From Candidatus Saccharimonadota bacterium (GTDB lineage: Archaea > Nanobdellota > Nanobdellia > Pacearchaeales > GW2011-AR1), in the NCBI GenBank assembly GCA_049511795.1, contig JBEKXS010000001.1, positions 358,288-390,287 on the forward strand: a DNA stretch of 32,000 nucleotides, given 5' to 3'. Every line of letters begins with the position of its first letter. Position 1 is the first letter of the stretch. The translations under genes and the position numbers were made by a program. Under the pieces are notes generated by a model, which was not told the origin of the DNA, did no database searches, and saw only the letters and a list, made by a program, of their open reading frames with translations. Shown here piece by piece: positions 16,354 to 31,578 of this stretch.

Positions 16354-16491
16354 ATGAAAAAATATTTACTTCTTGTAGAAGATGAAAAACTCTGGGAAAA
16401 ATTTAAGCAGAATATAAAAAAAGACCTTAATACAGAAATAATAGAACTTATCAGAAAAAAAATTGAAGAGGTGAAGAAGCATGAGAAATAA
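16354..16491 (+). CDS. 45-aa ribbon-helix-helix-like small protein (not in the supplied ORF track)
   Basis: MKKYLLLVEDEKLWEKFKQNIKKDLNTEIIELIRKKIEEVKKHEK: a beta-strand (YLLLV) followed by two helices, CopG/Arc-like size and pattern. SD AGGTGG 4 nt upstream. Overlaps the next gene's start by 11 nt. Confidence 0.45.
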   Translation: MKKYLLLVEDEKLWEKFKQNIKKDLNTEIIELIRKKIEEVKKHEK

Positions 16492-18310
16492 AAAGGGTCA
16501 GGTTACTATATTCATAATCATTGCAGTTGTCATTGTTGCTCTGGTTTTGGGTTATCTTTTGCTAAGAAACTCTATTGCACCACAGAGCATTCCAGGCGAC
16601 ATACAGCCAGTTTATGACAGTTTTGTTTCCTGTCTGCAAGACAACACCCAAACAGGAATTAGTGTTCTTGAAAGTCAAGGAGGTTACATAAACCTCCCTG
16701 CATTTGAGCCAGGAAATACATACATGCCATTTTCTTCACAGCTTAATTTTGCAGGAACTCAGATACCTTACTGGTATTATGTATCTGGGAATAACATACC
16801 AAAAACACAAATACCCTCTCTTAATGATATGCAAATCGCATTAAGTAGCTTTGTTTCCCAGAAAATAAGAAGCTGCGACTTGAGCTCTTACTATGACCAA
16901 GGTTTTGTTGTCAAAATGGGAAATCCAAGCAGCTCTGTCAATATAAAAAACAGCGAAGTTGATGTTAGTTTGTCAATGCCTCTTACAATACAAAAAGGAA
17001 ATGAGACAGCTGTTGTAAACACGCATAAAATTGTAGTTACATCTTCTTTAGGAGAATTATATAATTCTGCGCAAACTGTTTATAATGATGAACAAAAAAA
17101 TATGTTTTTGGAAAATTATACAATTGATGAGTTGAGAACTTATGCGCCCGTTGATGGAGTCCAAGTTACATGCGGACCTTTAATTTGGAATGCAAATGAT
17201 ATTTTTGACACATTGCAAAATGCAATAACAGCAAACACTCTTGAATTAAAATCAAATGGGGCTACAAATGACTACTTTGCATTGCATCTTCCTATAAATG
17301 ATAATGTTAGATTTTTGACTTCGCAAAACTGGTCAAATAGCTTTGAAGTTTCTCCAGCAGATGGACCAATATTAACTGCTTTGCCCGTAGGAAATCAACA
17401 AGGATTAGGCATTCTTGGATTCTGTTATGTCCCTTACCATTTTGTTTACAATATAAAATACCCTGTTTTGATACAAGTATACAACCAAAATGAAATTTTC
17501 CAGTTCCCATTTGCAGTTGTTATACAAGGAAACAATCCAAGACAGCCATTGCCAGGAACAGCAACATCTGAAACTCCTAATGATCTTTGCCAATATAATA
17601 ATACACAAATACAAGTTACGACAGTTGATAAAAATCTGAATCCAATAATAAACGCAACAGTTTCATATGAATGCATTCAGCAGGAATGTTCAATTGGTTC
17701 AACAGATATCTCTGGAAGCTTAAGTGCAAATTTCCCACAATGCGCTAATGGATATGTAATTGCAACAGCACCAGGATTTAAAGATACAAAATATCTTTTC
17801 TCAACAGTGCAGCAAGGTTCTTTAGAAATTATTATGGATAAAGTTTACCAAACAAACATCCAATTACTTGTTGATGGACAGCAATATACAGGCATAGCAA
17901 TGATAACATTTAGTTCAGACTCTTCAACACAAACACTTGCATGGCCTGACCAGAGAACAGTAAACTTAAGTGAAGGTAATGAAAATATAACTGTCCAAGT
18001 ATATAAGAACAGTTCAATAACAATACCTGCAACAACAACACAACAATGTGTGACTGTTCCAAATGGAATTTTGGGAATAATTGGATTGACAAGACAAGAT
18101 TGTTTTGAGGTAAAAGTCCCCCAGCAAATAATTTCAAATGCTCTTGCTGGAGGAGGAAATATAGAACAATATTTCCTTGAGACCGATTTGGCGCAAGGAA
18201 AAACTTTGCAGATAAATGCGCCAGGCTTGCCGACACCAACAACAATAGATGATGTTCAAAATAATTATAATTTATTTGACCAAAATCAATTAACTGTTAA
18301 TTTAGTATAA
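16481..18310 (+). CDS. Secreted/surface protein (609 aa) with archaeal class III (type IV pilin-like) signal peptide
   Basis: MRNKKG|QVTIFIIIAVVIVALVLGYLLL matches the [KR]G|Q + hydrophobic helix prepilin pattern (compare KKGQ in methanococcal pilins). Q/N/S/T-rich body with 10 Cys. A carboxypeptidase-regulatory-like beta-sandwich stretch: VTTVDKNLNPIINATVSYEC...GYVIATAPGFKD. SD GAGGTGA at 16468-16474. Confidence 0.75.
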   Translation: MRNKKGQVTIFIIIAVVIVALVLGYLLLRNSIAPQSIPGDIQPVYDSFVSCLQDNTQTGISVLESQGGYINLPAFEPGNTYMPFSSQLNFAGTQIPYWYYVSGNNIPKTQIPSLNDMQIALSSFVSQKIRSCDLSSYYDQGFVVKMGNPSSSVNIKNSEVDVSLSMPLTIQKGNETAVVNTHKIVVTSSLGELYNSAQTVYNDEQKNMFLENYTIDELRTYAPVDGVQVTCGPLIWNANDIFDTLQNAITANTLELKSNGATNDYFALHLPINDNVRFLTSQNWSNSFEVSPADGPILTALPVGNQQGLGILGFCYVPYHFVYNIKYPVLIQVYNQNEIFQFPFAVVIQGNNPRQPLPGTATSETPNDLCQYNNTQIQVTTVDKNLNPIINATVSYECIQQECSIGSTDISGSLSANFPQCANGYVIATAPGFKDTKYLFSTVQQGSLEIIMDKVYQTNIQLLVDGQQYTGIAMITFSSDSSTQTLAWPDQRTVNLSEGNENITVQVYKNSSITIPATTTQQCVTVPNGILGIIGLTRQDCFEVKVPQQIISNALAGGGNIEQYFLETDLAQGKTLQINAPGLPTPTTIDDVQNNYNLFDQNQLTVNLV

Positions 18311-18311
18311 A

Positions 18312-21300
18312 ATGAAGAAAAAAATGTCAAAGAAAGAGAGAATTTTAACTAGGAAGAACTTTAGCGCTATTCCAATAATTGGGCTATTTTTAATATTAAC
18401 ATTATTTTTTGTATCATTTGTTTCTGCACAAGGCTCTTATGTAAGGGCAGCACCTGCATACACTTATGGTCAGCAGACAAGCTCGTTCTTTGGATTGCAA
18501 AATTATCCGCAGATTGATCCTAACATGTGCAATAATAGACAAGATTTTATTTTACAAGTAGATCCTCTTGGCTGCACACCAAGTGTTGTTACAAGTGACC
18601 TTCTGGGACAGCAAAATGTTCCTGTATTTTGCCCTATTGTTGCAACACAATTAAATCCGCTTATGAGCGTAAATGCGATAAATAATATGATATTAACACA
18701 GCAGCCTGGAACAAGCTTTTCAAATAATATTGCTGGTGTAAATTATTTTCCTGCACAAGCTGCACTTGGTCAATATAACCCATCGATAACTTCTCAATAT
18801 CTGGGGAATATAGGATATGCAACAATAGTTTTAAGACAGCAGCCAAATGAATCTGCAATGCCTAGTTTTGTCCAAGGAAATATTACAGCGCAAATAAGCT
18901 ATAATATACAGAATGCATTTGGCGTGGGAAATGCAGCATATTATTTGCAAACATTAAATGACAGTGATTTTAATAATAATATAAATGCTTACAGTTTCTG
19001 GAACGGAAAAGGGTTTGTAAGACTGGATAGCGCTGATAATACAGGTGCAACTGTTTCTATTTATTCAGGAGTAAGCGGTGCTGCAAGCCAAAGTACTGCC
19101 AAACAAAAAATTGCTACACTAAATCTAAAACCAGGCGAAACCTCTTCTGATGTTTATCTTCCTGGATTTGGATTATGCATGGGAGGCTTGAAAGTGCAGT
19201 TAAACGACCTTGAAAATCCAGATACAGTTGCAAAAATTGTTGTTGATTCAAATGTTGTTGATTTGAAAGCAGGAGATTCATTCCTTGATGGAAAATGTAC
19301 TGTTAATACTATTACCAAATACGGAATTAATCAGAATGTGCAGATTTCTTGCAGTGAGGATCAACAACATAGTAGCTTTGCACTTGGCATAAATCCTAAA
19401 ATAAACCTTACAATTTCAAACCCAACTATGGGAACAGTAACAAGACCATACAGTGTAGGCGACCATTTATTTGATTTCCAGGACGGGTCAAAAACATATG
19501 GGGTTTATCTTGGGTTCATAGGCAACAACGGGAAAACTGGCTCAATAAATGATGCTTACCTTTGGCTTCTTACAGTTCCTTCTGATGTGAGCACTGAAAC
19601 ATCTTTGTCAAATGATGAAGTTGCTTCTATAGCTAGTCTTGACAGTCATTTAGTTACTCCAACTGTAGGACAGGGATTTTGGGGTGCAGCAATAACTATT
19701 GGAAGTGACCTTCTTAGAGGCGCAGGCCAGGGCATAAAAACAATTGTTACTGGAAAGGGCCTTACTCCTATTTCTTATTCAAGTTCTGGAACAAGTGTTG
19801 GTGGGACAAATATACAGATTCTTGGTTATGCAGGAGCTTATAATGCTGATATTTCCAAATTGCCAGGAAATGTATTTACGTCTTACACAAATGCAATGAA
19901 TGATTATCAGACAATTGTCCAAAATTATGGAGGAGAAACAAGTGCTACGGGTTCATCACAGACTACTTATGGAGAACAGGCACTTGAACAAGAAATAAAT
20001 CTTGCAGGAAGTTTCAACCAGAAAAAAACTGCGCTGCAACTTTGTCAGCAATATTCACAAAGTTATGGACCTGCTCCTGATAATATATGCAACGACCCTG
20101 TTCTTTTGTCAAGCACGTCTACATCTGAGCAGAGTGTTATTATTAATGGACAGACACATACAATTTCATTTGAAGGAATAACAGCACCAAGTTTTGATCA
20201 GTTTGGAGTAAAACTCACTATAGGATACCCAAATAATGGGGTTCCTATAACTGTTACGTTACAGAAAAATCAGATATATTATGTTAATGAAACAACAGGA
20301 GAATATATACAGCTTACTGATTTAACTCCTACATCTGCAACTTTTACTACAAACTTAGTGCTTGCAGGAACAACATTGCAGAACATAAAGAATTTTGCAT
20401 CAAGCACAGGAAGCCATACACTTAAAGTTGGAACTCAGGATAATTTCGGAGGTGCTTATACATTTGCAATTCAACAGATAAATTTGCAACAGGTAGCAAA
20501 AGTTTCAATACAATCTGATATAAATTATGCACACTCAAATGCGAGCTTCAGTTTTAAGATTGGAATTGAAAAGAGCGCAATACAACTAACCCCAAACCAG
20601 ACAAAACAAAGAATTAGTGATTTAAACAAAACAATTAATCAATGGCAAAGTCTTCAGAACGATCTTAATACTGTTGTTAAGGTAGGAAAAACAGCATGCC
20701 TTATTACAGAAGTTGGACTACTTGCAAAAAACTTTGTTGCAAACCTCGGCGGTGCAGGAGTTGCAAGACAAGCTGTTATGAGAAATTCTGGAGGATGGGA
20801 TGACAAGTGTGCAGCTATGGTTAAGGCAGGGCAGTATACAAGTGTTGAAAATTGCCTTCAAGCAAATTCTGCTGCTGTCGATGCATCTGTAAATACATAT
20901 GATGCACAGGTTCAAGCTCAAAACCAAAATATACAGACTCTTAGCCAGGGACTTCCAACAACTACTGTTGCAGGAGAGAAAGTTGCAGATAGTGGGCAGC
21001 TTTTCAATAAGATAAATTCTTCTGTAATAACAGGCCTTTCAAACAACGCCAATGCAATATCTTCTAATGGACAGATAAAAGTTGGTAACCAAAATGTGAA
21101 TATTGCAGATGCAGCCCAAAGAATAAACTCTAACACAGCTACACTTTCACAGGTGGAACAGCTTCAATTAAACTTAGGATTAATAAATTCAAATGATCCT
21201 ACTGTAAAAGCTGTTGCGCAAAACCAAGTTCAAAACATTCTTGGGCAGATTTACAGCAATTCAAATCTTTATACTCAGCAAAATGATTTGACAAAACAAT

Positions 21301-24300
21301 ATGGTGCACAATTTGTCATAAGCAGTAATGAAAAACTTATAAACATCCCATTAAGCGGAGAAACATTCTCTCAATTACAAAATGTTAAAGGACTTTCTCT
21401 TCCTGGAACCACACCTGTTCAGCTTTATAGAGATCAAGTTACTGGCCAAAATTATCTTTTAGTTTTGAATAGCGCCAATGTTATAACACAAACATATCAA
21501 ATAGCAGGTGATGGAACATTGAGCATAGTTAATCAAAATATTGCAAATCCATTAAAGCTTAATCCTGTTACAGCTAATTCATTTAATAACAAATACTTGA
21601 ATCCAACCGTTCAATATTTTGAAACAGGACAGTATGCTGGATTGCCTGCAATTGTTCCATTTGATATCCAAAATGGTTGGTATGCCGCAATAAAATCAAA
21701 TCTTCCAAATATTCCAGTAGTTGGCACTACAGGTAATATAAATTCTTACGAATCTTCCACAAGAGTTTCAAGTTTTTTTATCTGCAATGTTGGTCAAAAT
21801 GGCAAAGAGGATAATATGGGTGTAGATGACAATTGTGAACAGTTCACTCCAGGTTCAAGCCAGCAGCCACCTCTTTTCTCAGGCGCTTTGACAGCAACAC
21901 AGTCCCAGGCATTAGAAACAAAAGCCATAAATGCAATCCAGCAGGCAACATCACAGAAAAAATCAGGCATTACTCAGATAGCAATAAATGGTGTAGGAAA
22001 GATAAATGTAGGCCAACCATCTGCAGGCACACCTGCTATACAATGTGAAGACTTTGAGTCTCCAAGTGATTGCAACATTTTGTTCAATGTTTGTGACCCT
22101 GTCATATGCCCTTCGAGCAGATGCAATTTAGGGGGTGCATATACTGTTCAGGACGTGATACAGTCAGGAATAATTGGGAGCCTTGCACTTTGCTATCCAA
22201 ATTTCCCACAAATAAAAATTCCAATTTGTTTGTCAGGAGTTAATGCTGGATTGCAAGGTTATATCAGTGTTTTAAAATCCTATCAACAATGCCTGCAAAC
22301 TAACCTAAATACAGGTCAACAAGTAGGAATCTGTGATGAAGTCAATAGTGTTTATCAATGCCAATTCTTTTGGAAGCAACTTATACCTGTTGTGAATTAT
22401 GCTCTTCCAAAAATAGCTGGAAATGTTTTAGGACAAAATTCAGGGACGGGTGGCGGAGAATATTTAGCAGGTACAGATGCTCTGACAAATGCACAGAAAT
22501 CAGTTGATTACTTCAGCCAATATTATGCTGCAAATTCATACAAAGCTTTCCAGGAAAGGTCAACAGAAAGTGTTGGAGATTCTGTTTGCCAGAACTTTAT
22601 GTCTCTTTCAACACCAAATGGAGGAAATCTTTTTGATGCGTTAATCACGCCTGATTCGCCTGTGCAATTCTATGGACAATTTAATGAAGCTCCTTATACA
22701 ACTGCAACAAATCCACCAACATCACAATACAATGTTTTCTATCATATTTATGCAGGAACAGATTTCCCTGCTTACTATCAGGTTTATCTGAAGGGTTCTG
22801 CAAGTTCATTTTATCAAGATACCGGAGTGAGCAGAGTTGTTGCAACAGGTGTAGTTCCTGTTGGGCAATTTATGACTAACACAAGTGTATTCACAGCCCC
22901 TTCTGGTTATCAGCAATTGTGCATTGTAGTTAATGGGCAAGAACAATGCGGCTTCAAACAGGTAACAACTGATTTTGGAGTTAATTATGTGCAGCAGCAA
23001 TATCTTTCTTCCCAAGCATCGCAGACAAATATAACCTCTCAAGCAAACTGTAACTCTGGAACACCAAGTCTTTATAGTTTATTAAATCCAAATGCACAAG
23101 CAGGTGTTACAAATGCTGCAAATCCTGCAATTTACAACCAGGGAATAATAAGAATATGTTCTACAAATAATCCAGCACAGGGAACAGACCCAAACTGGAA
23201 TACACCAAATGCAAGATGGCAGAAAGTTGGTTATTGTGATACACAAAATATTGGATGCTGGCTTGATACACAAAGCGTTTCAAATGTAATACAAAACCAA
23301 AATATTCTGAATGCAACATTACAACCAGTAACTTCACAATTTGTAAATGCTTTGCAGGCTCAAAATGGATTCTTTGATAATCAAGGATTCTCTTCTTATT
23401 TATTGTCTTTGGATACGTTGAGAGATCAACATCAGGATTCTCAGATAATATCATCAATAACACAAAATCTTTCAAAAGCTTCATTGAGTATTCAGAAAGC
23501 AGAGTTATATTTGAGAAGAGGGAATGCTTATGGTGATATATCACTTGCAGGAAATCCAAATGCGCCTTCTCCTCCTGTAAACCCAAATGCTAAACCAGAT
23601 GGTGCTAGCTGTGCTCAAGCCTCAGATTGTCAGTCAAATTATTGTGATCAGACTGCAAGTCCACCTACATGTTCTTCGCCAACTCTTCCAACAATAAATG
23701 TAAATTCTGGAACGAGTTTTGAATCACCAGTATTCCAATTCCATGATGGTACAGTATACATTAAATATGTAAGTGGGTCTTCTAACCTTTATTATAAATT
23801 CACAAATGGGCAATGGTACTGGTCTTCTGACCAAAATAATTGGTTTAATACTGTTGCAAGTCCAACAGAACAATCACAATCTGGTTTACCTGGCGCAACA
23901 CTTTCATCAACAAATCAATATTTCATTACAAATTTATTAAATAATTACGGAACTTCATATTCTGGAGGATTATCTCAGTTATTAAAAAGAACTACTGATA
24001 ATAAAGAGGGAGTTTTTGGCACTTCACTTACTACAGATAATGTACAATTTTCTAATGATGGAACTTTTACAGTTAATGGAATTCATATGTCACCTGGATC
24101 TTTCCCATTACAAACAAAATTCAGATTTTCATACACACAAAATCAATGGCAATGGTCCCCTGCGAGCGCTAATGACTGGACATCTGTATCTCAGTATGCA
24201 ATACAGGGAACAAGTGGGGATACATTTTCAGGCCAGTTAGCGAAAGGAGATGTTAATACTTTATTAAATGCTTTAAATGCTATGCAGGGCAGTGATGCTT

Positions 24301-25070
24301 ATGCACAAGGAGCCGCAGTAATTTTTAGTATAGATGCACCAAACTCAATAATCTCTTCTGGAACACAAACTGGAACAGGAAATACTGGAGGAAGTTCAAG
24401 TGGGACTACAGGAACAACTGGAACAGGAAATATTATTTCATGCACAGATCAGCAAAGTTGTCAAACTGCATTGCAACAAAGAGTTGGTTCAACTTCTATT
24501 ACATGTGTGAATACACTCGATTGCCAAAATAAATTATCAGAAAGAATACAAGGAGAAAAAATCCTTCAATTAGCAGAGCAAATTAAACAAAACTTTCCTG
24601 GCATTTCTGATTCAGATGTGCAAAGCCAGACTGGCGCACAATCATTTGAATGCCTTGCCTTGCAAATTTCAATGACAGAAAGCGGGATGCACCAATGTGC
24701 TTTATATTTTGACTCAAATGGAAACCCCCTGTATTGTGAAGGAAATCCGGATGAAGTTATTTTCAATGGGAATGGTAATGAAGGCAGTTTTGGAATAATG
24801 CAAATAAATTCAAAAGTTCATACAGATATATCAACTAGTGATTTAAGCTACTTGGATAAAGATGTAAACTATGGATTAAATCTTTTAATAAGTGGATATA
24901 ATGCACAATCAACAAACTTATACTCAACATGTATCCCAGGCCAAACTTATATAGGATGGAACAGGGCAATTAGAAATTATAATGGTTGGGGTTGCCAAAA
25001 TCCAGGGTATGTAGATTCTGTTGAGGGTGCAAGAAGTAAAGTTGGTTTGTTATTCCCTCAATGCGCTTAG
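18312..25070 (+). CDS. Giant (2252 aa) Cys-rich secreted protein with C-terminal lytic transglycosylase (SLT/lysozyme-like) domain
   Basis: Uninterrupted 6.76-kb ORF starting 1 nt after the previous stop. Sec-type signal FSAIPIIGLFLILTLFFVSFVSA|QG. About 44 Cys by my count. C-terminal SLT motifs TESGMHQC / GSFGIMQINSKVH / NYGLNLL / AIRNYNG. Confidence 0.9.
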   Translation: MKKKMSKKERILTRKNFSAIPIIGLFLILTLFFVSFVSAQGSYVRAAPAYTYGQQTSSFFGLQNYPQIDPNMCNNRQDFILQVDPLGCTPSVVTSDLLGQQNVPVFCPIVATQLNPLMSVNAINNMILTQQPGTSFSNNIAGVNYFPAQAALGQYNPSITSQYLGNIGYATIVLRQQPNESAMPSFVQGNITAQISYNIQNAFGVGNAAYYLQTLNDSDFNNNINAYSFWNGKGFVRLDSADNTGATVSIYSGVSGAASQSTAKQKIATLNLKPGETSSDVYLPGFGLCMGGLKVQLNDLENPDTVAKIVVDSNVVDLKAGDSFLDGKCTVNTITKYGINQNVQISCSEDQQHSSFALGINPKINLTISNPTMGTVTRPYSVGDHLFDFQDGSKTYGVYLGFIGNNGKTGSINDAYLWLLTVPSDVSTETSLSNDEVASIASLDSHLVTPTVGQGFWGAAITIGSDLLRGAGQGIKTIVTGKGLTPISYSSSGTSVGGTNIQILGYAGAYNADISKLPGNVFTSYTNAMNDYQTIVQNYGGETSATGSSQTTYGEQALEQEINLAGSFNQKKTALQLCQQYSQSYGPAPDNICNDPVLLSSTSTSEQSVIINGQTHTISFEGITAPSFDQFGVKLTIGYPNNGVPITVTLQKNQIYYVNETTGEYIQLTDLTPTSATFTTNLVLAGTTLQNIKNFASSTGSHTLKVGTQDNFGGAYTFAIQQINLQQVAKVSIQSDINYAHSNASFSFKIGIEKSAIQLTPNQTKQRISDLNKTINQWQSLQNDLNTVVKVGKTACLITEVGLLAKNFVANLGGAGVARQAVMRNSGGWDDKCAAMVKAGQYTSVENCLQANSAAVDASVNTYDAQVQAQNQNIQTLSQGLPTTTVAGEKVADSGQLFNKINSSVITGLSNNANAISSNGQIKVGNQNVNIADAAQRINSNTATLSQVEQLQLNLGLINSNDPTVKAVAQNQVQNILGQIYSNSNLYTQQNDLTKQYGAQFVISSNEKLINIPLSGETFSQLQNVKGLSLPGTTPVQLYRDQVTGQNYLLVLNSANVITQTYQIAGDGTLSIVNQNIANPLKLNPVTANSFNNKYLNPTVQYFETGQYAGLPAIVPFDIQNGWYAAIKSNLPNIPVVGTTGNINSYESSTRVSSFFICNVGQNGKEDNMGVDDNCEQFTPGSSQQPPLFSGALTATQSQALETKAINAIQQATSQKKSGITQIAINGVGKINVGQPSAGTPAIQCEDFESPSDCNILFNVCDPVICPSSRCNLGGAYTVQDVIQSGIIGSLALCYPNFPQIKIPICLSGVNAGLQGYISVLKSYQQCLQTNLNTGQQVGICDEVNSVYQCQFFWKQLIPVVNYALPKIAGNVLGQNSGTGGGEYLAGTDALTNAQKSVDYFSQYYAANSYKAFQERSTESVGDSVCQNFMSLSTPNGGNLFDALITPDSPVQFYGQFNEAPYTTATNPPTSQYNVFYHIYAGTDFPAYYQVYLKGSASSFYQDTGVSRVVATGVVPVGQFMTNTSVFTAPSGYQQLCIVVNGQEQCGFKQVTTDFGVNYVQQQYLSSQASQTNITSQANCNSGTPSLYSLLNPNAQAGVTNAANPAIYNQGIIRICSTNNPAQGTDPNWNTPNARWQKVGYCDTQNIGCWLDTQSVSNVIQNQNILNATLQPVTSQFVNALQAQNGFFDNQGFSSYLLSLDTLRDQHQDSQIISSITQNLSKASLSIQKAELYLRRGNAYGDISLAGNPNAPSPPVNPNAKPDGASCAQASDCQSNYCDQTASPPTCSSPTLPTINVNSGTSFESPVFQFHDGTVYIKYVSGSSNLYYKFTNGQWYWSSDQNNWFNTVASPTEQSQSGLPGATLSSTNQYFITNLLNNYGTSYSGGLSQLLKRTTDNKEGVFGTSLTTDNVQFSNDGTFTVNGIHMSPGSFPLQTKFRFSYTQNQWQWSPASANDWTSVSQYAIQGTSGDTFSGQLAKGDVNTLLNALNAMQGSDAYAQGAAVIFSIDAPNSIISSGTQTGTGNTGGSSSGTTGTTGTGNIISCTDQQSCQTALQQRVGSTSITCVNTLDCQNKLSERIQGEKILQLAEQIKQNFPGISDSDVQSQTGAQSFECLALQISMTESGMHQCALYFDSNGNPLYCEGNPDEVIFNGNGNEGSFGIMQINSKVHTDISTSDLSYLDKDVNYGLNLLISGYNAQSTNLYSTCIPGQTYIGWNRAIRNYNGWGCQNPGYVDSVEGARSKVGLLFPQCA
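24640..25067 (+). other. SLT (goose-type-lysozyme-like lytic transglycosylase) domain of the giant protein
   Basis: Catalytic-Glu context ISMTESG (gaa at 24678-24680, residue 2123), GIMQIN, NYGLNLLISGY, WNRAIRNYNGWG. Confidence 0.75.
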
Positions 25071-25129: not shown

Positions 25130-25213
25130 GCGGAGATGCCGGAGTGGTCAAACGGGTCAGGCTTAGGACCTGATAGCTTAGTGCTTACCTAGGTTCGAAT
25201 CCTAGTCTCCGCA
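25130..25213 (+). tRNA. tRNA-Leu(UAG), long variable arm
   Basis: GCGGAGA..TCAGG-CTTAGGA-CCTGA, variable arm TAGCTTAGTGCTTAC, CTAGG-TTCGAAT-CCTAG, TCTCCGC, discriminator A. Confidence 0.92.
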
Positions 25214-25223: not shown

Positions 25224-26162
25224 TTATTTTGTCTTTACTCTTATCTCGTTTTCTTTTTGCTTTATCTTTTCCTCTAAATCAAGCTTTTCTATTAGCTCTT
25301 TGTAACGGTTTCTTATTGTGACTTCTGTTATTCCTGCAATGTCTGCAACTTCTCTTTGCGTCTTTTTCTCGTCGTTAATGAGGGCTGCGACATACAAAGC
25401 AGCAGCAGCAATTCCTGCAGGCCCACGGCCAGAAGTCAATTCAACATCTTCTGCACGCTTCAAAACCTTTAAAGCATCATTCTGTGTTTTTGGAGAAAGT
25501 TTTAGAACAGATGAGAATCTTGAGATGTAGTCTTTTGGAGAACTCTGATTTACCTTTATTCCAAGCTTTCTTATGATGAACCTGTATGTTCTTCCGATTT
25601 CTTTTCTTTCAACATCAGAAGCTGTTGCCATTTCATCAAGTGTTCTTGGAATGTTGTATGACCTGCAAGCTGCATAAAGACAAGCTGCTATAACTGATTC
25701 CATAGATCTTCCACGAACAAGACCACGCTGAAGAACATAATTGTAGATTCTTGCTGCATCATCTCTTATTACATTTGGCAGATTCAAGTAAGATGAAATA
25801 ACCCTAAGCTCTGCCATTGCAAGCCTAAGATTTCTTTCAATGCTTGTTGAAACACGCTCTTGCCATTTTTTAAGCCTAAGGAATTTTCTTGTTTGCTTTG
25901 GTTCAAGCCTATAGATATCTGAAATTTCTCCAACGTTTGTTGTAAGACCTTTGTCAAATTTCTGGATGCTTGTTGGAGCTCCACCACGTCCTTTTTTCTC
26001 GCTTTTATCAAACTTTCCCTGCAGATCAACACCTGTGTCCACCATCTTTTCTTCGACGACAAGACCACAGTCATTGCAGATAACTTCTCCCAAATGAGAA
26101 TCATAAGTAAGATTAATGCTTCCACATTCAGGACATTTTCTTATAGAAGATGATGCTGGCAT
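25224..26162 (-). CDS. tfb: Transcription initiation factor IIB (TFB)
   Basis: N-terminal Zn ribbon CPECGS...CNDCGLV, two cyclin-fold repeats, and C-terminal HTH QREVADIAGITEVTIRNRYKEL. Confidence 0.95.
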   Translation of the reverse strand: MPASSSIRKCPECGSINLTYDSHLGEVICNDCGLVVEEKMVDTGVDLQGKFDKSEKKGRGGAPTSIQKFDKGLTTNVGEISDIYRLEPKQTRKFLRLKKWQERVSTSIERNLRLAMAELRVISSYLNLPNVIRDDAARIYNYVLQRGLVRGRSMESVIAACLYAACRSYNIPRTLDEMATASDVERKEIGRTYRFIIRKLGIKVNQSSPKDYISRFSSVLKLSPKTQNDALKVLKRAEDVELTSGRGPAGIAAAALYVAALINDEKKTQREVADIAGITEVTIRNRYKELIEKLDLEEKIKQKENEIRVKTK

Positions 26163-28706: not shown

Positions 28707-30533
28707 TTATTTTCTTAAAAAGCTTTCCAAGCCTATTTTCTCCTCTTTTTTATACCCTTTTTTATGAGCTTTATTATGTCGTATAATATAATAAATTACT
28801 GCACCTAATATTATAATCAAAATAATTATAATTACTATATATATCTTTTCAGTATTTGTTACAATGCTTGATACAACTTGGAATGAATCTGTTGCGCTCG
28901 CAACTTTTCCAGCATAAGTTGTTTTTACATAAACCAGATAATTTCCGTAGTTTATATCACTTGGAGTCGTTATATCTTTGATAAAACTTGCCTGGGTTTC
29001 TAAAGCAACTGTTTCATTTTGGTCATATACATAATTTCCATTTGAATCTTTTATTATATACTCTACATTTATGTCTGTCCTCCCAGAAATACCAAGATTA
29101 AACATTGTTACCTGAACAAGGACATCATTCCCAGGTTCAATTATCTTGTATTTTGGTTGGATTACTGCTTTCACATCAAGTAATGCCCCTCTTGATTGAA
29201 TATTTAATCCTACCATAACATCTTTTTCAGTGCCGCCCGAGACTATTTTTATTTTACCCAGATACAAATCAGGATTTGTGTCATCTCTTGCAATAAAATC
29301 TATTAAAATTGTTTTGGATTCGCCAGGATTAAGAGAAAAGTTAGTTTCATTAATAATAGCTAAGTTATCAAGCTGATCAGAGCTTATCTGGAAGTATAAT
29401 GGTTTTGTATCTTGATTGTTTATTGTTATCTCTTCGGTATCTATGCTTCCCTGAACAATTGAGACTAATAATTGGCTTTTATCAATGCTAAATAAGTTTG
29501 ATGGAATAATTCCGCCACCCCCACCGCCACCTCCACCTCCTGAAACTACGATTGTTGTGCCACCTGATGGGGCTGTTAAATTTTCCTGTGTACTGTATAC
29601 ACTTAACCCTGTAACATTGAAAACAAGAGTCCCGTTATAATATGTCCCATTGCCGTTTGAAGTAACTGTGTAACTTATCTTAGTACATATTGAAGGAGGA
29701 CATATAGAACCATCTTTTAAAATTTGTGGATTTGAGAAATTTAAATTGTATAATGAAAGAGTTGCCGGTACATTTAAGTTGGGAAGTGCTGTTGAATTTA
29801 CATAAATACTATTTGAAGAAATGTTTGTGTAAGAATCCAAATCTACTTGGTTATCAGATGGAACCAAATCATTTGTCATATTTATAGGAGGACTGAAAGC
29901 AATTTTTCCAAAGTTAGTATTTTCCAAGATAACATTACTTAAATTCTGCAATTCCTCATAAGATGATTTGTTGAAATCTGTTGAGCTTCCTCTTGTTGAG
30001 CCAGAATAATTACTGTAATAAACTGTGAACTTGCTTGCATTGACAGTGAATGTTCTACTTATTAAAGAATTCCCGTTGCTGTTATTTGCGTATAAATAAA
30101 TTGTGTGCTGTCCAGATATAGTGTTAAACGTTGTGTTTCCTGCTAATGTTGTGTTTGAACCACTATCTAACTGATACCATACAAAATTTTGATTATTTAC
30201 TGCAAAATTTAAGGGTAGATTTGTCCCTGTAATGTATGTTCCATTAGTTGGTTTTATTATTAATAATGATGGCGGAAAACCAGCAGAGCTTGCAACTTGG
30301 AAAGAAAAACCATGAATTCCTTGATATAAGGTGTCAGAGAGGTAACCTATTGCTTGCTGATAAAAAGAAGCTGTGTTTCCACTATAATTATTGGTTGCTA
30401 TAATGTTTCCATCTGCACTTCCTTGAGTAAAATAACCAGAATAATCAGGAGAATTTATTTCTGTAGCAGAAACAAAAAAAATGAATATTATAAAAAACAG
30501 TCCTAAAATTATTGAAATAATTTTTTTTTTCAT
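28707..30533 (-). CDS. Surface-anchored N/S/T-rich protein (608 aa): signal peptide, Gly10 linker, C-terminal TM anchor
   Basis: N-terminal IISIILGLFFIIFIFFVSA. Many N-x-S/T sequons. GGGGGGGGGG linker. The C-terminal half has beta-sandwich-like repeats. The protein ends with IYIVIIIILIIILGAVIYYII followed by a basic tail. Confidence 0.8.
   Translation of the reverse strand: MKKKIISIILGLFFIIFIFFVSATEINSPDYSGYFTQGSADGNIIATNNYSGNTASFYQQAIGYLSDTLYQGIHGFSFQVASSAGFPPSLLIIKPTNGTYITGTNLPLNFAVNNQNFVWYQLDSGSNTTLAGNTTFNTISGQHTIYLYANNSNGNSLISRTFTVNASKFTVYYSNYSGSTRGSSTDFNKSSYEELQNLSNVILENTNFGKIAFSPPINMTNDLVPSDNQVDLDSYTNISSNSIYVNSTALPNLNVPATLSLYNLNFSNPQILKDGSICPPSICTKISYTVTSNGNGTYYNGTLVFNVTGLSVYSTQENLTAPSGGTTIVVSGGGGGGGGGGIIPSNLFSIDKSQLLVSIVQGSIDTEEITINNQDTKPLYFQISSDQLDNLAIINETNFSLNPGESKTILIDFIARDDTNPDLYLGKIKIVSGGTEKDVMVGLNIQSRGALLDVKAVIQPKYKIIEPGNDVLVQVTMFNLGISGRTDINVEYIIKDSNGNYVYDQNETVALETQASFIKDITTPSDINYGNYLVYVKTTYAGKVASATDSFQVVSSIVTNTEKIYIVIIIILIIILGAVIYYIIRHNKAHKKGYKKEEKIGLESFLRK
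29511..29540 (-). repeat. (GGN)10 simple repeat encoding Gly10
   Basis: Plus strand tccgccacccccaccgccacctccacctcc, a GC-rich island inside an AT-rich gene. Confidence 0.8.
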
Positions 30534-30534
30534 T

Positions 30535-31578
30535 TTATGATGAACTTATTGTTCCTGCAGATTGATGATATAGACATCCTTTTGGAATGATTAATAGTTT
30601 TCCTGATATAGTCCAGCAATTTCCTGCAGCCATTCTTATCGCATCTCCTATGATTACATAATTAGTAGTTGTAGCACTGCTTCCTGTTTCATTAACAGGC
30701 AAATTAAGTTGTGTGGCTGATACAATTTTGTATTCAGTATCTATAGTTCCACATGTAGTACCTGCACTTTGATTTGTACCAATTTCAGTATATGAAGCAC
30801 CTACTGTAAATGTACGGCAAGTTGAAGATGAAGTTCTGGCAGCTATTGAACCACCAATAATGATGTCATTTGCATTACTTGAATTTATATTTGTAGTAAG
30901 AGCAGTAGTTGCTGTTGAACCATTACTTGGAATAGAAGTGTTTGTATCAAATGGTGCTGCAGTATTAGCACCGCTTATTCCATAAGCTATAAAAGTATTT
31001 GAACCAGTGCCATTCCAGGTGACATTAATTTTGTCATTAGTCAAAGGTGAAGCAGCAATAGCATACCATTCTTCTATATAACCAGTACTAAGAAAATTTA
31101 CAGGATCTCTTTTTGTCCAACTCAAAAGAGAACCATCTGAAATTGAGCTAACCCTATTAATATTTGCATTAGCACCACCTGCAAAGACTATTATGACATC
31201 ATTAGCTTGAGTAGTTGATAAAGTTGAATTCACAGAAGCTCCAGTAGTAGTAAAATTTCCAGTTATACCATCTATAGCTAGAGGGTCAACAATATAATTT
31301 AATTGCAAACTTCCTCCTGAAACCCTTAAATCAAATGTATCTTGACTATCTTGAAGGTTTGTTAAAAAAACTTCATTGGGTTGATTTGAAACAATATTTG
31401 AAAATTGTGCAATCTTGTTTGTTCCATTTTTATCATAAATTTCAATTATTGGATTTCCTGAAATGATTCTTGGATAAATAGTAATACCACTTGTGCTTGT
31501 CAGTTTTTGTTGAAAAGTAACTTTCACATAATCCTCTGAAGAAATTGTCTCACTCCAAACATTATCTAATTCTTTCAC
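30535..31578 (-). CDS. N/S/T-rich secreted-protein body (347 aa as called); the frame stays open upstream to 31680 and appears frameshifted from its signal peptide
   Basis: ORF as in the track. Upstream in the same frame it reads LSFFSGNTLSNEIKITGAQHLDSNRNFISDIYKQVKELDNVW with no ATG. The body has no signal peptide of its own. Confidence 0.7.
   Translation of the reverse strand: MKELDNVWSETISSEDYVKVTFQQKLTSTSGITIYPRIISGNPIIEIYDKNGTNKIAQFSNIVSNQPNEVFLTNLQDSQDTFDLRVSGGSLQLNYIVDPLAIDGITGNFTTTGASVNSTLSTTQANDVIIVFAGGANANINRVSSISDGSLLSWTKRDPVNFLSTGYIEEWYAIAASPLTNDKINVTWNGTGSNTFIAYGISGANTAAPFDTNTSIPSNGSTATTALTTNINSSNANDIIIGGSIAARTSSSTCRTFTVGASYTEIGTNQSAGTTCGTIDTEYKIVSATQLNLPVNETGSSATTTNYVIIGDAIRMAAGNCWTISGKLLIIPKGCLYHQSAGTISSS

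Follow-up and report, generated by a model that had tools for sequence, protein, structure and literature searches.

The 32,000-nucleotide stretch of DNA analysed here over its full length (hereafter, the window; positions 358,288 to 390,287 of contig JBEKXS010000001.1, GenBank assembly GCA_049511795.1) comes from a genome deposited under the name Candidatus Saccharimonadota bacterium and placed by GTDB in the archaeal order Pacearchaeales. The genome comprises 530,569 bp (0.53 Mb) in 3 contigs and is 92.5% complete. On its forward strand, the window carries a gene for a giant protein of 2252 amino acids (positions 18312-25070; coordinates are those of the window unless stated otherwise), an uninterrupted open reading frame that is homologous over its whole length to proteins of approximately 2000-2500 amino acids encoded in related DPANN genomes. 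A first-pass annotation of the window had proposed that the extreme C-terminus of this archaeal giant is a lytic transglycosylase domain of the SLT type. The fold match, a profile-profile link and a conserved Glu-Ser pair bear this out: the tail is predicted to be a divergent GH23/SLT-type domain that has its putative catalytic residue intact and goes undetected by the current Pfam model; judging from the orthologous giants, it appears to belong to a set of interchangeable tips that occur on a near-universal scaffold accompanied by a fixed partner gene.

The giant protein starts with a Sec-type signal peptide (18312-18428, plus strand), in which a basic n-region is followed by hydrophobic residues 19-38 and a putative cleavage site between VSA and QG; apart from this signal, hydrophobic-segment analysis called no other segment in the protein. 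A similar N-terminal signal is present on all 12 further giant orthologues. The protein could be aligned end to end with 33 giants at 29-43% identity and is also part of an alignment of 22 giants. Conservation among these proteins peaks outside the lytic tail, in a Cys-rich core (residues 1250-1650; 22059-23261, plus strand) that contains a hydrophobic stretch and to which no function has been assigned. Identity in this core is 0.43-0.72 per 50 amino acids, the highest in the protein, and many of its Cys residues are invariant in the alignment of giants. No Pfam domains were found in the giant protein or in 4 of its full-length homologues, a profile of 22 giants searched against the PDB returned nothing for the core and the rest of the giant, and the ESM Atlas yielded no match for residues 1100-1760 or 1790-2015.

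The scaffold core is separated from the tip by a variable region containing two Trp-rich modules (residues 1751-2015; 23562-24356, plus strand), with an occupancy of 0.4-0.5 and an identity of 0.05-0.14 among the giants; that these modules bind glycans is a conjecture. The variable region is followed by a flexible linker rich in Gly, Thr and Ser (residues 2017-2040; 24360-24431, plus strand), present as the first-pass annotation had described it, and by the four evenly spaced Cys that it had also pointed out. The latter constitute a duplicated C-x5-C-Q motif (C2044/C2050 and C2065/C2071; 24438-24530, plus strand), which leads into the first helix of the lytic domain and occurs once in most relatives and twice in the window's copy. 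The GH23/SLT-type, lysozyme-like domain itself, as delineated with the AlphaFold model, structure alignment and hhalign, spans residues 2068-2252 (24513-25067, plus strand).

Directly upstream of the giant gene, with its stop codon 1 nt ahead of the giant-gene ATG, is a gene for a partner protein of 609 amino acids (16481-18310, plus strand). Its N-terminus is of the prepilin type (class III), with MRNKKGQ leading into a hydrophobic helix; the protein has a single transmembrane segment and matches no Pfam or NCBIfam family. In all 16 related loci, the giant gene was immediately preceded by a gene for a homologue of the partner, at 28-85% identity and whatever the tip of the giant. The genome also encodes a Peptidase_A24 prepilin peptidase and T2SSE-type ATPases.

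When searched against 1.84 billion representative sequences, the 193-residue tail gave 109 matches at E<=1e-3, including 80 at E<=1e-10, and nearly all of these were located at or near the C-terminus of proteins of 2000-3000 amino acids. A word-indexed homologue search returned one fragment, and a search for related loci with the single protein found only one genome, which belongs to the same genus. Four of the proteins matched by the tail (P0068, P0100, P0104 and P0106) were discarded as relatives, being tandem-repeat proteins that were matched via their repetition and contain no lysozyme-like domain.

All the signature strings on which the first-pass annotation had relied (SMTESGMHQC, GSFGIMQINSKVH, VNYGLNLLISGY and WNRAIRNYNGWG) are located in the frame of the giant gene. 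The motifs of the domain comprise E2123-S2124, G-I-M-Q-I-N (2161-2166), N-Y-G..L-I (2186-2193), R-N-Y-N-G-W (2221-2226) and Y-V (2233-2234). Residue 2123, singled out by the annotation, is confirmed as the predicted catalytic Glu (codon 24678-24680, plus strand): Glu occupies this column in 95 of 95 true family sequences and is invariant in the 22 full-length giants, and the 9 Gln seen at the same position come from the repeat false positives P0100 and P0104. Within the GxMQ motif, G2161 is conserved in 112 of 113 sequences, M2163 in 104 of 116 and Q2164 in 105 of 115. Motif III takes the variant form R-x-Y-N-G-W (Y2223 and N2224, 105/105; G2225, 102/105), and the Tyr of motif IV, Y2233, is found in 101 of 104 sequences. 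The count of 7 Cys in the domain had to be corrected, since the span originally flagged (24640-25067, residues 2110-2252) holds 6 (C2114, C2129, C2142, C2207, C2228 and C2251), or 8 when the second C-x5-C motif is added. These 6-8 Cys are probably bonded, so that the tip would be rich in disulfides.

One member of the family departs from the giant architecture: a protein of 431 amino acids (P0033; NCBI MEK9207188.1) consists of a domain of the window's subtype fused to a VanY D-Ala-D-Ala carboxypeptidase. Its contig is 1.7 kb long and labelled Patescibacteria, a taxonomic label that is doubtful on so short a contig.

The family is connected to canonical SLT domains through its outer members and through profile comparison. 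Five distant tail matches (P0094, P0098, P0099, P0105 and P0110; phmmer E 5.6e-8 to 5.4e-4) pass the cut-off of the Pfam SLT model, and one of these, P0094, carries an SLT-domain annotation at NCBI and comes from a Nanoarchaeota archaeon. In an hhalign comparison of 80 family sequences with 5 Pfam-positive SLT domains from DPANN archaea, the two sets being disjoint and domain-trimmed, with no canonical SLT among the 80, the profiles were aligned over columns 96-182 with a probability of 98.8% (E 5.1e-17). A global profile alignment placed the helix ending in E2123-S2124 on the canonical SLT catalytic Glu-Ser pair and located a Cys-containing insert of approximately 18-20 residues between this pair and the GxMQ motif. 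The best sequence-profile match of the family in the PDB, a weak one (E 0.011), was to goose-type lysozymes.

The predicted structure points in the same direction. An AlphaFold model of the tail built from an alignment of 37 sequences had a predicted local distance difference test (pLDDT) score of 92.8 and a predicted template modelling score of 0.90, and its helix 53-65 ends C-terminally with E2123-S2124. When this model was compared with 48,161 PDB chains using VIA-align, the top of the list consisted almost entirely of GH23 and lysozyme-like proteins, the best being MltF (Z 10.8; 136 residues aligned, 4.2 A) and MltC (Z 9.9; 124 residues aligned, 3.2 A), followed by Slt (Z 9.9), MltE (9.1), g-type lysozyme (8.6) and MltD (8.1), and the matches covered about model residues 9-193. 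The Foldseek lists for PDB and viral structures had low scores, yet were uniformly composed of lysozyme and SLT entries.

Several results weigh against a murein-cleaving transglycosylase at the end of the giant. The Pfam SLT model (PF01464, gathering cut-off 21.3 bits) matched neither the whole protein nor the 193-residue tail at E<=1, found nothing at E<=10 in the six-frame translation of the genome and likewise gave no match to the 4 full-length homologues. There was no match to the tail or the protein in NCBIfam or, with phmmer, among PDB sequences, and the PHROGs collection gave faint transglycosylase matches only (E 0.09-0.3). Foldseek returned no match at E<=1e-3, with TM-scores of approximately 0.4-0.45. 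Furthermore, the structure comparison also matched the model to a GH124 cellulase (Z 10.2) and to a GH23 chitinase (Ralstonia A-471, Z 8.2), so that the fold by itself leaves the substrate unfixed. Finally, the window's tail type was found in 15 of 41 related genomes versus 37 of 41 for the scaffold core (a draw of 40 relatives, with one or two matching places per genome), which implies that the scaffold mainly serves a purpose other than glycan cleavage. The first-pass annotation had named two outcomes as damaging to its proposal, a lack of SLT-profile matches and a loss of the catalytic Glu from the alignment. The former is literally what the Pfam search produced, and it is overruled by the evidence from fold, profile-profile comparison and the Glu-Ser pair; as for the latter, the Glu is kept in every true relative.

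The survey of tips covered the C-termini of 12 orthologous giants without a match to the window's tail (loci L012-L023; coordinates in this paragraph are those of the respective loci). Two of them (L012 and L018) end in a canonical Pfam SLT domain. In giants from other genera of the same order, the tip consists of an SLT domain together with Amidase_3 (L023, 2142-3821, minus strand; 4.8e-56) or of a Peptidase_M23 domain (L015, 6872-8551, plus strand; 2e-23), and a weaker M23/endolysin match was obtained for L017. The giant of a genome from the window's own genus (G003; L021, 7253-8932, plus strand), which is 2624 amino acids long, carries a pretoxin-HINT domain (PF07591, 8.6e-12) followed by approximately 300 unrecognised residues. 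The tip of L020 proved to be a still more divergent copy of the window's tail, and nothing recognisable was present in L013, L014, L016, L019 and L022. Inspection of these C-termini also turned up an unannotated domain (H-x-V/I-I-F-I-x-W ... I-F-D-W-I) that is common to L013 (6861-8540, plus strand), L019 (2406-4085, minus strand) and the C-terminus of P0110, where it comes after the SLT domain; it looks NlpC/P60-like by eye and has no Pfam or PHROGs match.

The first-pass annotation had left three readings of the domain side by side: a bacterial target, a pseudomurein-like glycan of a methanogen host, and horizontal acquisition from bacteria or phages. Amidase_3, M23 and VanY enzymes act on bacterial murein peptides, and the 92.5%-complete genome yielded no match to the murein-synthesis markers Mur_ligase_M and Transgly. 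The combination of murein-specific alternative tips with the lack of a murein-synthesis marker therefore favours bacterial peptidoglycan as the target and disfavours both pseudomurein and the organism's own wall. The tip is predicted to play no part in turnover of the organism's own wall.

We thus arrive at a reading to which we give a probability of roughly 70%, namely, that the giant is a secreted cell-surface protein whose GH23-like tip cuts the peptidoglycan of a neighbouring bacterium, with activity, display and target all predicted from the comparisons described above. In such a mechanism, the giant would be exported by the Sec pathway and kept at the cell surface, perhaps via the co-transcribed pilin-like partner, and the flexible linker would hold the GH23 tip at the far end of the scaffold of approximately 2000 residues. 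On meeting a neighbouring bacterium, the tip would cut the beta-1,4 bond between N-acetylmuramic acid (MurNAc) and N-acetylglucosamine in the peptidoglycan, and through the local breach of the wall the archaeon could attach to, or feed on, its bacterial host or prey.

Comparison with characterised enzymes bears on the chemistry of the predicted cleavage. Like the bacterial family-1 lytic transglycosylases (Slt70, MltC and MltE of E. coli; MltF and MltD of P. aeruginosa), the window's domain has a lysozyme-like helical fold (Z 8-11), a predicted catalytic Glu at a helix end followed by Ser, the G-x-M-Q motif and a conserved Tyr after Y-N-G. Unlike these enzymes, it has Y-N-G in place of A-Y-N-x-G, gives no significant match to the Pfam model, contains an insert of approximately 18-20 residues with two Cys and 6-8 Cys in total, and forms the terminus of an archaeal protein of 2000 residues. 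With the goose-type lysozyme (GEWL, PDB 153l; GH23), it has in common the stretch G-x-G-[LI]-M-Q-[VI]-x-K-x-x-H and the E-S motif. However, in the HMMER alignment of the family profile with 153l, Asp97 of GEWL (MQVD) is matched by Asn (N2166, MQIN), a residue that occupies this position in 101 of 116 family sequences. A second carboxylate is therefore missing at this place, which leans towards the single-Glu mechanism of lytic transglycosylases, whose products are of the 1,6-anhydro kind where lysozymes hydrolyse the bond.

The best-surviving alternative, which we regard as possible and considerably less probable than cleavage of bacterial murein, is that the domain acts on a glycan other than murein, such as chitin or chito-oligomers, another beta-1,4-linked N-acetylhexosamine polymer or an exopolysaccharide, or that it is mainly an adhesin that binds glycans with little turnover. 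The chitinase and cellulase among the structural matches fit this alternative, as does the distance of the domain from characterised enzymes, including the extra insert next to the predicted catalytic Glu. Nevertheless, the strict conservation of the E-S, GxMQ and YNG motifs argues for catalysis over binding alone, and the alternative tips of the orthologues (Amidase_3, M23 and canonical SLT) are specific for murein.

It appears unlikely that the tip is aimed at an archaeal (methanogen) host, with pseudomurein or a different wall glycan as its substrate. Such a host would agree with the published statement that the known cultured DPANN archaea have archaeal hosts (PMC8204110). However, an orthologue carries at the same position a MurNAc-L-Ala amidase (Amidase_3), an enzyme that has no substrate in pseudomurein. 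In addition, pseudomurein contains beta-1,3 bonds to N-acetyltalosaminuronic acid and is resistant to lysozyme, and the known pseudomurein lysins are peptidases, both of which count against this target.

We consider it very unlikely that the giant gene belongs to a provirus or another mobile element, encoding an SLT-tipped tape-measure or tail-like protein obtained recently from a phage or a bacterium. The idea draws on weak structural matches to SLT-containing tape-measure and internal-core proteins of phages, and on the swapping of tips between orthologues. Against it, the scaffold is present in nearly all related genomes, in one or two places each, the partner gene always adjoins it, and no close phage or bacterial relative was found: the viral Foldseek matches have E-values of at least 1.4e-3, and the 109 tail matches are the only ones among 1.84 billion sequences. 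The surroundings of the gene are those of an ordinary archaeal chromosome, with TFB, GINS51, ribosomal protein S3Ae, SRP54/FtsY and RNase Z encoded in the window along with four tRNAs, and with an unremarkable G+C content of approximately 33%. A tRNA-Leu(TAG) gene just 3' of the giant gene (25130-25213, plus strand) marks the end of the unit, and the convergent neighbour beyond it is the TFB (TFIIB) gene (25224-26162, minus strand; Pfam TFIIB, 1.2e-47), which adjoins the giant gene downstream in 10 of the 16 related loci. The giant-gene unit is thus a chromosomal module, not a provirus. Least probable of all is that the motif resemblance is due to chance and the region is not lysozyme-like, a notion in keeping with the missing Pfam, NCBIfam and PDB sequence matches and with an unusable AlphaFold model from the single sequence (pLDDT 36.8), but contradicted by a confident alignment-based model that matches GH23 enzymes across the whole domain and by the 98.8% profile-profile probability.

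The horizontal origin raised by the first-pass annotation is plausible in another form, as an ancient acquisition of the domain from bacteria. Because no close bacterial or phage relative exists among the matches, no donor can be named and a recent transfer is unsupported; moreover, since only approximately 90 columns align with canonical SLT domains, a tree would not resolve the donor.

Further downstream, the window contains a pair of genes for exported proteins of unassigned function (28707-30533 and 30535-31578, both on the minus strand). The 608-amino-acid member of the pair has a signal peptide, a C-terminal transmembrane segment and a weak match to the MG2 domain (E 4e-4).

Murein transglycosylases in archaea have been encountered before, and Rinke and colleagues reportedly tested one experimentally in 2013. 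A family of very large (up to 3,000 amino acids) extracellular proteins resembling murein lytic transglycosylases, fam00969, was described in Pacearchaeota and Woesearchaeota by Castelle et al. in 2021, who proposed attachment to, or degradation of, bacterial cell walls and cited earlier sightings from 2013 and 2015 (PMC8204110). Vigneron et al. (2022) reported genes for a 'large lytic murein transglycosylase' (GH23) in Woesearchaeota and proposed predation on bacteria (PMC9723730). The giant described here is likewise very large (2252 amino acids), has a Sec signal and a domain resembling murein lytic transglycosylases, comes from a small-genome DPANN archaeon and is assigned the same role as fam00969. 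In contrast to that family, its domain is invisible to the Pfam SLT model; the likeness to the published cluster is one of description. Neither a fixed prepilin-type partner nor the exchange of tips is mentioned in the published accounts of large DPANN lytic transglycosylase proteins (PMC8204110, PMC9723730). The protein class is thus already published, and what the window's giant adds is a Pfam-invisible subtype and an interchangeable tip on a near-universal scaffold.

The spread of the domain was estimated from 400 good genomes drawn evenly from the phylum; the tally, of 401 genomes, includes one unpublished genome, G284. The Pfam SLT model matched 193 of the 401 genomes, and the window's tail subtype was present in 11 of them, mostly from the window's own family. 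Thus, an SLT-type domain is commonplace in the phylum, and the window's subtype is a lineage-restricted variant that escapes the Pfam model. GH23 murein transglycosylase has been stated to be absent from Pacearchaeota genomes of vent chimneys (PMC11537232). Because the subtype described here is missed by the Pfam SLT model, such profile-based absences of GH23 in Pacearchaeota may be false negatives, a suggestion based on the behaviour of the Pfam model.

The architecture of the giants, a long conserved N-terminal part with exchangeable C-terminal effector domains, is reminiscent of bacterial polymorphic toxins (Zhang et al. 2012, PMC3482391). One orthologue (L021) even carries the pretoxin-HINT domain, which owes its Pfam name to its location in front of toxin domains (PF07591). 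The giants differ in that their scaffold is archaeal and unrelated in sequence, most of their tips being murein hydrolases and not nucleases or deaminases. Neither an immunity gene nor a spare tip cassette turned up at the giant loci, although no search was aimed at them. We tentatively suggest, as a possibility that we rate well below the murein-cutting role itself, that the scaffold together with its prepilin-type partner serves Pacearchaeota-type archaea, across the order, as a contact-dependent delivery device with polymorphic exchangeable effector tips aimed at bacteria, which would be an archaeal counterpart of the bacterial polymorphic toxin systems. The effector set of such a device would, equally tentatively, comprise two GH23 subtypes, a MurNAc-L-Ala amidase, an M23 peptidase, a pretoxin-HINT domain with an unassigned toxin and several unrecognised domains. 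If this proposal is correct, the Pfam-invisible GH23 subtype would imply that surveys with standard profiles under-count the murein-degrading capacity of these archaea. The exchangeable-tip architecture, including the pretoxin-HINT variant, is to us the most interesting part of what remains beyond the published class and, if general, would be an analogue of polymorphic toxin delivery.

A DPANN archaeon with a genome of half a megabase has to depend on other cells for its living. A conserved surface giant with murein-cutting tips would be among the clearest genomic hints that Pacearchaeota and Woesearchaeota have bacterial partners. For the window as such the point is a modest one, the protein class having been published already, and the giant offers a concrete protein to assay.

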